Part shown: in pieces, positions 2,247 through 5,601 of the stretch
Position numbering within the stretch: the first letter of the stretch is position 1
How the letters are laid out: the number at the start of each line of letters is the position of its first letter
Virus record (IMG/VR): IMGVR_UViG_3300029498_000044
Reading direction: 5' to 3' (one strand)
Length of the DNA stretch: 13,541 nt
DNA from: a virus
Taxonomy: Duplodnaviria > Heunggongvirae > Uroviricota > Caudoviricetes
Notes under the pieces: generated by a model
The model's input: only the letters and a program-made list of their open reading frames with translations
What the model was told of the DNA's origin: nothing
The model's database searches: none
Translations under genes and position numbers: made by a program

Positions 2247-2519
2247 TTACCTCCAGATGCGTTGCTGGAATGTGCGGGACGGACGCGGTGGGCGTTCGGA
2301 ATAAGGGAGTCTGACGTAGATTATCCAGTGACGATAATCGAGGGTGAGGGCTTTCCTAAACTCATATCCACGTCTGCGGTAGTTATGAATCAGCCATTCG
2401 GCCTGTTCTTCAGTACAGGGATCGTGCTGATACCAGTCATATTTGAATGCGTGAGAACGCCACCCGTGCCTGCTGGCAAAGGCAGAATCAGAATTGCGAA
2501 ATTTGAAATTATGCGCCAT
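2247..2519 (-). CDS. Hypothetical prophage protein (90 aa)
   Basis: ORF with GGAG SD 6 nt before ATG at 2519. Its stop abuts the ydfU start. No motif recognised. Confidence 0.5.
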   Translation of the reverse strand: MAHNFKFRNSDSAFASRHGWRSHAFKYDWYQHDPCTEEQAEWLIHNYRRRGYEFRKALTLDYRHWIIYVRLPYSERPPRPSRTFQQRIWR

Positions 2520-2578
2520 TGTCATCTCCAATGGCGCTGCAGGTTGCCAGTTGTTCAGGCTGGCTCACGTATTATAAC

Positions 2579-2752
2579 TTATTCCCGAACTACCTTGAAA
2601 CCGAGTCTTTCCAAGTATTCAATGAATGCCTCAACAGATAACACTACATGATCATCAGGAATTAACGCTGTGTAGGTAATACCCCCATTCTCAACGCGCA
2701 CAGCATAGAGGCCATCTTCACTAAAAATTTCACGTAATTCTTCGATTTTCAT
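2579..2752 (-). CDS. Hypothetical small protein (57 aa)
   Basis: ATG at 2752 preceded by GGAAGGA 8 nt upstream. Track ORF 2579..2800 trimmed to this start. Confidence 0.45.
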   Translation of the reverse strand: MKIEELREIFSEDGLYAVRVENGGITYTALIPDDHVVLSVEAFIEYLERLGFKVVRE

Positions 2753-2884
2753 CAACAGAATCCTTCCAGATAAATAGCACTCCCCCTGTTCGGGGTCCAT
2801 CCCTCTTCTCCCTGCGCGCTACTTAAGTATTTTTGATTCTATTCTGGCACCGTCCAAAACTTCAAACACGTTGAAAATAAAAAC

Positions 2885-2905
2885 AAAAAACCCGCCGAAG
2901 CGGGT
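2885..2905 (-). terminator. Rho-independent terminator ending the two-gene cassette
   Basis: Minus strand: stem ACCCGC/GCGGGT with TTCG loop, then a T-run. Lies immediately after the stop at 2910. Shares an identical 20-nt core with 4721-4740. Confidence 0.65.
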
Positions 2906-2909
2906 ATAC

Positions 2910-4016
2910 TCAAACAATCTGGAAAATATTTCTTGGATTTGTAATAGGTCTGTTGATGGAGAACAACTCACGAATTAAATCTTGGCTCAAGCCAGTTTTC
3001 ATAAGAATTCTTAGCCAGGTTGCATCATCCAGCATTTCAATCGCCTCGGCCAGCATGCCGGGTTCTTCAGGGCGCAAAAGTTCATCACCAGGTTCAACTC
3101 TCGTATACCCTCTGGAATTAAGATGCATATAGCCAGTTCTTGCCTGTTCCTGGGTCAATAAGCCTAATGCGCTGGCTCGATAAATACACATTTTAAGGCT
3201 GATTTTCCATCTAAGTTTAAATTCAACCAGAGCATTCCAGTCGAATTGCTTACCTCGTATTCGTGGAAATTCTTTAATGAAAGATAACCTGGGAACTAAT
3301 AAGGCGCTCGAAAAGTGATCGGCTTGTGATTCCGTAAGTTTATCACCTGTCGTTATGCCCTCATGCATTACTAAATGCCCTAATTCATGACCTAAATCAG
3401 AGCGAAATCTACATATGCTTTTTTTAACATTGTTCCTGATGATAACAGGCCTGTTATTGTGAACAGTAAAAGCATCAACACGATCATCGACTCCCGTAAC
3501 ATGCGCAACGATTACCCCTAAACTCTCCGCCAATTTAACCATTGATGATATAGGGCCAAGACCTAAATTCCAGGCACGGCGACAATCTTCTGCCACTCGC
3601 TCAATATCATTCGGAGTAAGTAATTCAGCCCCTGGGTGCTCCGGTATGTTAACGTCAGGAAATTCGATTTCACCTTCAACAGCAGAAATTATAATATTAA
3701 GAATCTCAGCCCTGGCCAATACACTATTAGTCAGCGTTTGAGTCCTGGACTTCTTACTCCGAAAATGGCAGACATCACTTTCCAGAGCGTATTTTCGTTC
3801 AGTAAAAAGAAAACTGGACTTAATCATAAGCGCTGAAGATATTAACTCAAGACATTGCTCCGATGGCCTGCACCCCTTCTCCAGTTTGCTAACGAATTGC
3901 TTTGTCTTGCCAATTTTTTCGGCTAACTCTTCACAAGAAAGCCCAACAGCCATTCTCGCTAGTTTGAGCTTATCACCCCGATACTCAGTGAAGTTATTCA
4001 CCTGATGTTCCATCAC
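2910..4016 (-). CDS. HTH_XRE DNA-binding domain fused to ImmA/IrrE-family (COG2856) Zn-metallopeptidase
   Basis: N-terminal XRE helix-turn-helix (about residues 12-68, LARMAVGLSCEELAEKIGKTKQFVSKLEKG). HEXXH motif H210-E-L-G-H214 at nt 3375-3389. First codon is GTG at 4016 or ATG at 4013. Overlaps the upstream gene by about 20 nt. Confidence 0.85.
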   Translation of the reverse strand: MMEHQVNNFTEYRGDKLKLARMAVGLSCEELAEKIGKTKQFVSKLEKGCRPSEQCLELISSALMIKSSFLFTERKYALESDVCHFRSKKSRTQTLTNSVLARAEILNIIISAVEGEIEFPDVNIPEHPGAELLTPNDIERVAEDCRRAWNLGLGPISSMVKLAESLGVIVAHVTGVDDRVDAFTVHNNRPVIIRNNVKKSICRFRSDLGHELGHLVMHEGITTGDKLTESQADHFSSALLVPRLSFIKEFPRIRGKQFDWNALVEFKLRWKISLKMCIYRASALGLLTQEQARTGYMHLNSRGYTRVEPGDELLRPEEPGMLAEAIEMLDDATWLRILMKTGLSQDLIRELFSINRPITNPRNIFQIV

Positions 4017-4644
4017 TGCTCACATCCAAATCTTTATCCTTCGTACGCCGACGAAGAGGCACCTTATTAATCTCCGCTTCGTCAGGGAGTGTGTTATAAT
4101 CAAGAGGCATAAGCGGCATCGATGCTGTAGATTGATGAGAAACTATACTAATCTGAGCACCATAAGTATTAAATCCAACAAGAGCTACCTCCCAACGAGG
4201 CAGTGTGGACTCTAATTCACCATCGCCCTCTTCGGATAAAAAAGGCTCAGCTATGACTCGCCATGTAATATCTTGCTCAGCCTCAACATCACCAAACAAT
4301 GAGAGCTGCTCATACTCTACTTTATTTCGACGCAGACGATGTTTCTTTTTGGGGTTATTAATGCAATCTTTGGTAAATTGTAGCGGAACTTTATTTAAAG
4401 CAACTACATAGTCCAACCCCTTGGAAATCATCTCAAGGCCAGGAATTGCATCTTCATTTTGAATAAGATGATTTCTGACCCAATCATAAGCCCTTACACC
4501 TTCAGACCAGTTGCTGTCTAATGCGTGCTTATGATAGTACAGCTGCTCAAGTACGTTAGCGATCTCCGCCAACAAGTGGCGAACATAGTTTTCAGCAAGA
4601 TAAGGTTGAAATTCCCAACAAGGAGCTAACTGATTTTCATTCAT
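3994..4644 (-). CDS. Hypothetical 216-aa protein, operon partner of the HTH-peptidase; candidate effector or toxin
   Basis: Long ORF with no motif I recognise. Contains a basic patch KKKHRLRRNK. Its 3' end overlaps the downstream peptidase gene. Weak SD. Confidence 0.7.
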   Translation of the reverse strand: MNENQLAPCWEFQPYLAENYVRHLLAEIANVLEQLYYHKHALDSNWSEGVRAYDWVRNHLIQNEDAIPGLEMISKGLDYVVALNKVPLQFTKDCINNPKKKHRLRRNKVEYEQLSLFGDVEAEQDITWRVIAEPFLSEEGDGELESTLPRWEVALVGFNTYGAQISIVSHQSTASMPLMPLDYNTLPDEAEINKVPLRRRTKDKDLDVSSDGTSGE

Positions 4645-4679
4645 TTCAAGTTTCGCTTTTTTTAGAATTCGTAAACCAC

Positions 4680-4708
4680 ATATTTTCGCATTTTTCTATT
4701 TTTGTCAA
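4680..4708 (-). promoter_or_regulatory. Candidate cassette-specific promoter
   Basis: Perfect minus-strand -35 TTGACA (4703-4708). The -10 is weak (AAATAT or AAAATA at 16-18 nt spacing). Sits between the upstream terminator and the cassette start. Confidence 0.3.
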
Positions 4709-4720
4709 CCAGACTAATGC

Positions 4721-4740
4721 AAAAACCCGCCGAAGCGGGT
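4721..4740 (-). terminator. Rho-independent terminator at the 3' end of the hok transcript
   Basis: Same ACCCGC-TTCG-GCGGGT hairpin plus T-run as 2885-2905, about 70 nt past the hok stop. Confidence 0.6.
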
Positions 4741-4809
4741 TAAGTGCGGGTGCGTTGAGGATGCCTGGCACATCAGAGGTGGCGGGAGATTACTCCCCCG
4801 CCGGGTCTC

Positions 4810-4965
4810 TTACTCCTCAGGTTCGTAAGCTGTGAAGACAGCGACCTCCGTCTGGCCGGTTCGGATTCGTACCTCGCAGAGGTCTTTCCTCGTTACCAGT
4901 GCCGTCACAATGACGGTTAAACAGATGACGATCAGGGCGATTAGCATCGCCTTTTGCTGCTTCAT
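4810..4965 (-). CDS. hokD: Hok-family type I toxin (small membrane peptide, 51 aa)
   Basis: MKQQKAMLIALIVICLTVIVTALVTRKDLCEVRIRTGQTEVAVFTAYEPEE is a canonical Hok/Gef sequence and matches my memory of HokD/RelF. Track ORF 4810..5022 carries a 19-codon upstream extension at the mok-like position. Confidence 0.85.
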   Translation of the reverse strand: MKQQKAMLIALIVICLTVIVTALVTRKDLCEVRIRTGQTEVAVFTAYEPEE

Positions 4966-5169
4966 AGCCTGCTTCTCCTTGCCTTTCGGCACGTAAGAGG
5001 CTAACCTACGTGTGTAGAGCATAGATATGGCCTCAGATTAATGTTAAGCGTCTTGCCGGACGCGTAATGTTAACTGGGGCTTTTCTCTATCTGCCTTTTG
5101 GTGTTCATGCCTGAGACAGATAGCCTCAAGCACCCGCTGCAATTCTACTTAACTCTCCTTTTCCCGCAA
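4966..5169 (-). promoter_or_regulatory. hok promoter and long 5' leader with mok-like start and Sok target
   Basis: Minus-strand TTGCGG (5164-5169), 16-nt spacer, TAGAAT (5142-5147). Leader contains GCTTGAGGCTATCTG...CAGATAG complementary boxes. In-frame upstream ATG at 5022. Confidence 0.5.
5014..5090 (+). ncRNA. Candidate Sok-like antisense RNA (approximate coordinates)
   Basis: Plus-strand TTGCCT (4979-4984), 17-nt spacer, TAACCT (5002-5007) would start a transcript antisense to the mok start and SD. The 3' end is not resolved. Confidence 0.3.
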
Positions 5170-5176
5170 ACCGTTT

Positions 5177-5260
5177 TTATCCCCAGCGGCAAATCGAATA
5201 CACCACCAGCGCCACCGCCATCGCAATTCCTACCGTTGTTAATGCTTCAGGCCAGGTCAT
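5177..5260 (-). CDS. Candidate 27-aa hydrophobic peptide ([27 protein letters not shown])
   Basis: ATG overlaps the TGA of the upstream gene (ATGA). GGAGGA lies 9-10 nt upstream. Single predicted transmembrane helix. Not in the ORF track because it is under 60 aa. Confidence 0.3.
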
Positions 5261-5601
5261 CGTAAAATATCCTCCACGCTTATCAGTCCGTTCCGCTCCA
5301 GATAACTCATCGCCTTATCCGGTAATTTGCAGTCTGGCTTCGCTTTCCTCAGTTGCCAGGTTAACTGCTTTACCAGCATGGTTAACTCATCGACCAGACG
5401 CTGATATCCCACTGGTTTGTATTCATGCAATTTACCGGCTGGCTCTGCTGCCAGCGATACCAGTGCGATTTCCAGAACAGCAATATCCATCTTATATGTG
5501 CGGATGATGTCATGGTCGATTGTGCCCGGTATGCACAGTCTCTGTGCTTCAATAGTCTCCTCTGCGTGAGCTATTAACTGCTCTCTGGTAAAAGTCGTCA
5601 T
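5257..5601 (-). CDS. Hypothetical prophage protein (114 aa), paralogous to the next gene upstream
   Basis: ATGA-coupled to the 55-aa ORF. N-terminus MTTFTREQ and segment [11 protein letters not shown] resemble MTTITKER and [11 protein letters not shown] of the neighbour. Confidence 0.6.

Follow-up and report, generated by a model that had tools for sequence, protein, structure and literature searches.

The 13,541-nt viral sequence analysed here (IMG/VR record IMGVR_UViG_3300029498_000044; hereafter the window, meaning this whole stretch of DNA) matches a lambdoid prophage of Escherichia coli ABU 83972 with 100% identity, and it carries a two-gene cassette, rmrT-rmrA, next to a hok/sok locus. 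Two copies of a 20-nt sequence, AAAAACCCGCCGAAGCGGGT, that forms the core of an intrinsic terminator bracket this cassette. This locus is situated between the replication gene P and the antiterminator gene Q, in the nin region, where the order along the minus strand is the sok/hok 5′ region, hokD, the hok-side terminator (T2), rmrT, rmrA, the second terminator (T1), a rem-like remnant, a small conserved open reading frame (ORF), DUF968/ydfU, rusA and the antiterminator gene. The features on which the analysis turns, with the evidence for each, are as follows.

4810-5135, minus strand: hok/sok locus, comprising the hokD coding sequence (4810-4965), the mok frame (to 5022), the sok/5′ hok mRNA region (4960-5135) and, outside these coordinates, fbi (4748-4760) (Pfam, Rfam, RNA fold, PGAP)
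4721-4740, minus strand: T2, the hok mRNA terminator, with its hairpin at 4724-4741 and its U-run at 4719-4723 (terminator scan and fold)
4680-4708, minus strand: promoter-like element of the cassette, with a −35 sequence TTGACA (4708-4703), a 17-nt spacer and a −10-like sequence AAATAT (4685-4680) (conservation)
3994-4644, minus strand: rmrT, putative RosmerTA toxin, 216 amino acids, WP_001004956.1 (PADLOC RmrT, E = 4.6e-25)
2910-4016, minus strand: rmrA, predicted RosmerTA antitoxin, 368 amino acids, WP_000401168.1 (PADLOC RmrA, 6e-105; Pfam)
2886-2905, minus strand: T1, the predicted terminator of the rmrT-rmrA operon, with its hairpin at 2890-2905 and a U6-G-U5 tail at 2875-2889 (terminator scan and fold)
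2532-2885, minus strand: DNA downstream of the cassette, comprising the mosaic rem-like remnant (ORF 2579-2800) with its leader (alignment to K-12 rem, PGAP pseudo-fragment, empty-site allele L484)

Read on the plus strand, AAAAACCCGCCGAAGCGGGT occurs at 2886-2905 and 4721-4740 and nowhere else in the window, even when up to 3 mismatches were allowed across the whole 13.5 kb, and none of 200 dinucleotide shuffles of the window contained two matches to the 20-mer. A repeat finder placed the length of the repeat at exactly 20 nt and the spacing at 1835 nt, and the sequences flanking the two copies are unrelated to each other. Both copies were called by a terminator scan as minus-strand intrinsic terminators (ACCCGC-UUCG-GCGGGU followed by a U-run), with a stem of 6-7 bp that includes 5 GC pairs, a UUCG loop and a tail of U5 or U6-G-U5. 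The T1 hairpin has an energy of −10.9 kcal/mol and the U6-G-U5 tail, and T2 forms a 7-bp stem of −17.3 kcal/mol when folded with its context. The original prediction, made from the letters of the window, had described the two positions as bracketing a two-gene cassette and each copy as a functional-looking minus-strand terminator; its coordinates and gene content proved correct, and both copies fold as a hairpin followed by a U-run. Each copy sits 3′ of a transcription unit and in the orientation of that unit: 4 nt separate the rmrA stop codon from T1, and T2 lies ∼70 nt after the hok stop codon and 7 nt past fbi. T1 is the downstream border of the cassette and T2 is its hok-side border.

The two cassette genes lie on the same strand and overlap by 23 nt. 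The rmrA product combines an N-terminal XRE-type helix-turn-helix (HTH) domain (Pfam HTH_3, 5e-7) with an M78 ImmA/IrrE zinc-peptidase domain (Peptidase_M78, 6e-11) that contains an HELGH motif, and the rmrT product had no match in Pfam. On the basis of these profile matches, the pair is assigned as a predicted RosmerTA toxin-antitoxin (TA) and anti-phage module. Just downstream of T2 lies the element TGGTTGACAAA followed by ATAT, and both parts stay unchanged among copies of the cassette whose identity is 94%, 80% or much lower, a copy without hok among them. From this conservation we infer that the TTGACA/AAATAT element may serve as the promoter of the cassette; a consensus promoter scan of the window missed it, the −10 sequence being too weak. 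The guanine-plus-cytosine (GC) content is 0.39-0.44 across 2550-4650, as against 0.50-0.57 in the flanks.

The two terminators belong to different units. For T2, ownership by hok follows from the Rfam match of the sok region (4960-5135; RF01794, 117 bits) and from the predicted fold of the full hok mRNA (5135 to 4719; z = −6.45), in which the 5′ end GGGUGCUUGAG pairs with CCUCAACGCACCC (4748-4760) in the tac/fbi closing helix and the T2 hairpin follows directly after that helix. The hokD product itself matches Pfam HOK_GEF (2.9e-23) and is annotated as hokD by PGAP. Moreover, T2 and its right flank were conserved in the 124 hok loci that made up our set of hok-side junctions. We conclude that T2 is part of the hok/sok locus and is the terminator of the hok mRNA.

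For T1, we compared the window with 50 IMG/VR loci carrying RmrA relatives. The copies at loci without hok (90-92% amino acid identity) each finish with the ACCCGC/GCGGGT stem, the loop being TATAT, TGCTT, TGCAT, TTCAT, CATTG or TTCG, and in most of these loci no matching copy was found upstream, the two candidates being L390 (1 mismatch) and L401 (4 mismatches). A cassette of 80% identity in E. coli KL53 is located in a nin region that lacks hok, and it ends in AAAAAACCCGC-ATATA-GCGGGTTT; a matching terminator copy upstream of the KL53 cassette was not found. Because the hok-less relatives keep the same stem with other loops, mostly with no copy upstream, T1 is best read as the cassette's own terminator. 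At KL53, we also noted an AT-rich hairpin (ATCATTT-TCGGT-AAATGAT, followed by TTTT; L352:4240-4275) that precedes the cassette at the position of the hok terminator in the window, and this hairpin might be either coincidental or a terminator of low strength.

The original prediction had expected that related prophages lacking the cassette would have a single terminator after hok, and this is what was found. In the Qin prophage of K-12, there is one 20-mer, the left flank of which is the left flank of T1 and the right flank of which is the right flank of T2. We also built the predicted deletion product of the window (2300-2905 joined to 4741-5350) and searched for it in all complete E. coli genomes; it was present without interruption in 5 genomes at 97% identity. 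E. coli 025542-1 matches the window at 98.2% identity both over the left 605 nt and over the right 330 nt, with a single terminator between the two parts. Likewise, the downstream flank at 2532-2885 is of the same type as what comes after the lone terminator in prophages with an empty site. The breakpoints between presence and absence of the cassette are thus shown by K-12 Qin and E. coli 025542-1 to lie inside the 20-nt repeat, and the proposal that the repeats mark precise boundaries holds to the nucleotide, save for the ambiguity within the 20 nt themselves.

The cassette was present in 237 of 5426 complete E. coli genomes, with at least 99% identity in 224 of the 237, and the hok locus was present in ∼4970 of the 5426. 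The cassette had no DNA match in the INPHARED phage collection, even in a distant search mode, and among plasmids the sole matches were two phage-plasmid-like records in which the hok context is the same. Some copies are decayed, including one with an IS5 insertion (H151; FDAARGOS_1249), one with a frameshifted rmrA (L351:2505-3607; CFSAN004176) and one with a shortened rmrT annotation (L353:3589-4026; plasmid pD17EC0246-6), which suggests that some lineages can dispense with the system or select against it.

Among the 124 hok loci, 97 had one terminator, and in ∼20 a further copy with 0-3 mismatches lies 0.66-1.87 kb downstream. The DNA between the two copies falls into five cargo classes, listed here with the spacing between terminators.

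Class 1, spacing 1835: the RosmerTA of the window
Class 2, spacing 1865: a strongly diverged RosmerTA, of which phage Tritos has an example
Class 3, spacing 840-847: a Fic/Doc-family toxin with a small partner ORF
Class 4, spacing 1348: a separate ImmA-like peptidase and an XRE protein
Class 5, spacing 665: a 130-amino-acid lipoprotein

The hok terminator adjoins ∼17-20 unrelated downstream contexts, across which conservation is at least 0.85 inside the 20-mer and falls to background within ∼4 nt of the U-run. The Doc-type cargo was always found beside hok; the DNA downstream of it was of at least 6 kinds, with the junction in every case at the terminator, and cargo-free alleles matching three of these contexts were found. 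The RosmerTA cassette of the window occurs in two downstream contexts, one of the rem type and one of a small-ORF type. At these junctions, the U-run variant (TTTTT, TTTTG or GTTTT) tracks the downstream flank while the hairpin stays constant. Taken together, these loci show a slot directly behind the hokD terminator of lambdoid prophages that is used recurrently for TA and defence cargo. In the lipoprotein class, the hok-side terminator is degenerate (GAAAAAACGCCGAAGCGGGT, with a stem of only 3 bp; L001:2770-2789, L146, L170, L194, L200 and L221), and therefore the hok transcript may read into the lipoprotein cargo and end at the downstream copy.

The terminator sequence itself is widespread. 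Exact copies of the 20-mer were present in at least 120 IMG/VR viral contigs, ∼95 of the matches listed having unrelated flanks, and in at least 120 bacterial contigs of GTDB genomes from Pseudomonas, Serratia, Burkholderiales, Bacillota, Saccharibacteria and others. Near-copies were found in all 5426 complete E. coli genomes (median 7 per genome, range 4-15), and this terminator is also that of the argX-hisR-leuT-proM tRNA operon of the core genome, with 24 of 25 nt in common (L229:1201-1225, aslB-proM). The repeat within the window is far above chance, yet its sequence is not rare globally, and we therefore rejected the idea that the 20-mer is a rare sign of duplication, given its frequency in IMG/VR, in GTDB and in every complete E. 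coli genome. For this reason, the description of the terminator core as duplicated was not supported: it is a common genome-wide terminator, a finding that the original prediction had itself named as one that would refute it, and the word is misleading because the 20-mer is generic, T2 is owned by hok and T1 is owned, as far as its relatives indicate, by the cassette.

Some of these matches share a second sequence. The hairpin was followed by T(A/T)(A/T)TGCC in 32 of the 124 exact-terminator matches listed in viral contigs and in 11 of 124 in bacterial genomes, and in 16 of these TGCC-type matches CGGAG and ATG follow within 3-12 nt. The resulting arrangement of terminator, TTATGCCCGGAG and ATG is a conserved junction of ∼40 nt in otherwise unrelated phage contigs (L012, L015, L016, L037, L067, L090, L096 and others), and at L392 it lies downstream of a hok-less RmrA relative.

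We consider it likely that T1 and T2 are separately owned copies of a very common Rho-independent terminator and that they delimit a moron slot in which crossover would occur within the hairpin. Since it is a unit of promoter-like element, genes and terminator, the cassette is best read as a phage moron, running from putative promoter to terminator in an accessory-gene hotspot, and its components are all known. The established biology of the lambda nin region is the basis of the functions we propose for T1 and T2. In a lysogen, T2 would keep hok transcription from entering the toxin gene rmrT, and T1 would shield rem, ydfU, rusA and Q from transcription of the cassette; during lytic growth, phage antitermination would override both. 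The shared hairpin could in addition act as a point of short-homology crossover or template switching, which would yield gain of the cassette, its precise loss by repeat-mediated deletion and its re-pairing with other downstream backbones. We favour such hairpin crossover over random illegitimate recombination followed by selection because independent breakpoints coincide within a few nucleotides despite a spacer of 70-130 nt. More tentatively, with a confidence that stops a little short of an even chance, we suggest that identical terminator hairpins act as linkers independent of any recombinase, crossovers or template switches over 16-20 nt allowing insertion of defence and TA cassettes after the hok terminator, their precise deletion and their re-pairing with other lambdoid backbones.

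Several observations weigh against this interpretation. The 20-mer is generic, so that identity of the two copies could have arisen by convergence with no role in recombination. Recombination is read from the junctions, no event having been observed, and the coincidence of the breakpoints could partly reflect selection for intact terminators. In a RosmerTA variant of 97-98% identity, the loop is TACG and that of hok is TTCG, so that any crossover there used at most 10 nt of identity. Termination, read-through by antitermination and anti-phage activity of the cassette are predictions, and its promoter has a weak −10 sequence not detected by the scan. Finally, the low-GC tract runs left past T1 from ∼2550 and covers the rem-like remnant, and therefore composition alone does not delimit the cassette. 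Thus, the GC comparison set out in the original prediction held in that the cassette is lower in GC and was only partly useful for marking the boundary, as the tract continues into the remnant. Overall, that prediction was partly supported.

Could the two copies coincide through convergence alone? In this account hok and the cassette would each hold an optimal UUCG terminator, and the junctions would coincide through the definition of a moron together with selection against broken terminators. The abundance of the 20-mer in viral contigs with unrelated flanks and in diverse bacteria is in keeping with it, as are the several near-copies in a typical E. coli genome, among them the proM tRNA operon terminator, and the fact that hok-less relatives of the cassette already own a terminator with the same stem. 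However, all five unrelated cargo classes at the slot end in this terminator, with 0-2 mismatches, and the breakpoints of the 6 or more Doc contexts and of the ∼17-20 contexts of the hok terminator coincide within ∼4 nt even though 70-130 nt of intergenic DNA is available. Convergence also sits poorly with the segregation of U-run variants with the flank, a pattern that crossovers inside the hairpin predict, and we regard it as unlikely, though as a live alternative.

Two further accounts were considered, and we give both far less weight. If a mobile element aimed at terminator hairpins had inserted site-specifically and duplicated a 20-nt target, the outcome would be exact direct repeats at the borders, with one copy only where the site is empty, as observed. 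We nevertheless rejected a transposon with target-site duplication and think this origin extremely improbable: the cassette consists of rmrT and rmrA only, with no transposase, integrase or retroelement gene; a repeat search found no terminal inverted repeats at the cassette ends; and hok-less relatives carry the terminator downstream, mostly with no matching upstream copy found. Differences in loop and U-run between copies at other loci are likewise unfit for a copied target, and a duplication of 20 bp is unusually long for a transposon. The other account, that the cassette is ancestral at the site and that empty sites arose by precise deletion (slipped mispairing) alone, so that the repeats mark its loss, we hold to be very unlikely, if slightly less so. 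Precise deletion classically acts on direct repeats such as these, of 20 nt, the empty alleles each retain exactly one copy, and the near-uniformity of the carriers (at least 99% identity in 224 of 237) is compatible with this view, but 237 carriers among 5426 genomes, set against the ∼4970 with the hok locus, are not what it leads one to expect. Nor does it accommodate the low GC of the cassette, the relatives that sit at hok-less positions or the four other cargo classes that use the same slot. Deletion is probably part of the dynamics at this locus but not the whole story, and separately owned terminators bordering a moron slot remain the reading that we prefer.

Some further variants were noted at and near hok loci. 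In four of them (L155, L186, L214 and L192), the hok 3′ end is altered by ∼30 nt (…CCCGCCGAA(A/G)CGCTGAGGGATCCCCAT…) that split the terminator region, and these interruptions may be scars of events inside the hairpin. The rem-like ORF at 2579-2800 is a mosaic, its 5′ half homologous to K-12 rem and its 3′ half unrelated, and PGAP gives only a pseudo-fragment there. We tried the rem module as a further terminator-flanked cassette and discarded it, as it adjoins the hok terminator on one side and its other end is without a T-type hairpin. In prophages of the rem type, a related terminator, AAAAACCCGCCTGAGCGGGT, with the same stem and another loop, lies at a fixed distance 4-5.7 kb downstream of hok (L114, L144, L172 and L190), where it ends some other transcription unit.

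The arrangement gives nucleotide-exact limits for a RosmerTA cassette found in ∼4% of complete E. coli genomes. If the hairpin is the crossover point, it would offer a simple account of how morons are gained, lost and shuffled with no dedicated recombinase, and terminator-to-terminator intervals beside hok would provide a search key for new prophage cargo. If terminators do act as linkers, the hok-adjacent slot would be an integrase-free site of cassette exchange, and the wide use of one terminator by morons would be partly a consequence.

Compared with known systems, the locus is composed largely of familiar parts. The hok/sok system, for which plasmid R1 is the paradigm and for which tac/fbi closure and the regulatory scheme of hok mRNAs have been described (PMC9841398), is matched here by a Hok peptide, a mok frame, a Sok region, 5′-tac/3′-fbi closure and a terminal hairpin terminator, the difference being that this copy is of the chromosomal or prophage hokD type; the only new point is that its terminator forms the edge of a slot in which the cargo varies. 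RosmerTA systems consist of a zinc-peptidase antitoxin together with a toxin whose function is unknown (Millman et al., 10.1101/2022.05.11.491447), and the pair in the window resembles them in its two-gene operon, in its HTH and M78 antitoxin RmrA, in a toxin RmrT of unknown fold and in strong PADLOC profile matches. It differs in being prophage-borne and adjoining hok/sok, with an anti-phage activity that is predicted.

Variable defence slots in prophages are also known, such as the P2/P4 hotspots (10.1101/2021.01.21.427644), which share with this locus a fixed spot in a conserved phage backbone that receives alternative defence or TA cargos. Here, in contrast, the slot lies in the lambdoid nin region, is anchored on the hok terminator and has short identical terminator hairpins as its limits. 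It is an old idea, reportedly proposed by Susskind and Botstein and by Clark et al. in 2001, that short conserved boundary or linker sequences guide homologous module exchange in lambdoid phages, and the present case is similar in that short shared border sequences coincide with mosaic junctions. It is distinguished from them in that the shared sequence is a predicted terminator hairpin of 16-20 nt, for which a role in recombination would have to be read from the junctions. Neither a cargo slot beside hokD nor a role of terminators as linkers in exchange turned up in searches of the open-access literature, which is weak evidence of absence. An integron-type gene cassette was considered and rejected, since the hairpin is a perfect 16-nt terminator stem-loop and not an imperfect attC site, and no integrase was found among the annotated genes of the window; attC sites measure ∼60-140 nt.

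The closest parallel is the moron, an independently transcribed accessory unit inserted in a phage operon (PMC2629481, after Juhala and Hendrix). Like a moron, the cassette is present or absent in otherwise syntenic lambdoid prophages (empty in E. coli 025542-1 and in K-12 Qin), shares the orientation of the early-right (nin) operon within which it lies, and appears to have its own promoter-like element, its own terminator, a GC content below that of its neighbours and cargo that would be useful to a lysogen. What lies outside the moron definition is that the terminator of the upstream neighbour and that of the moron are the same 20-mer, shared by at least 5 morons in the slot. Hok/sok, RosmerTA, intrinsic terminators and moron architecture are each known, and their arrangement at this locus fits the established moron model.

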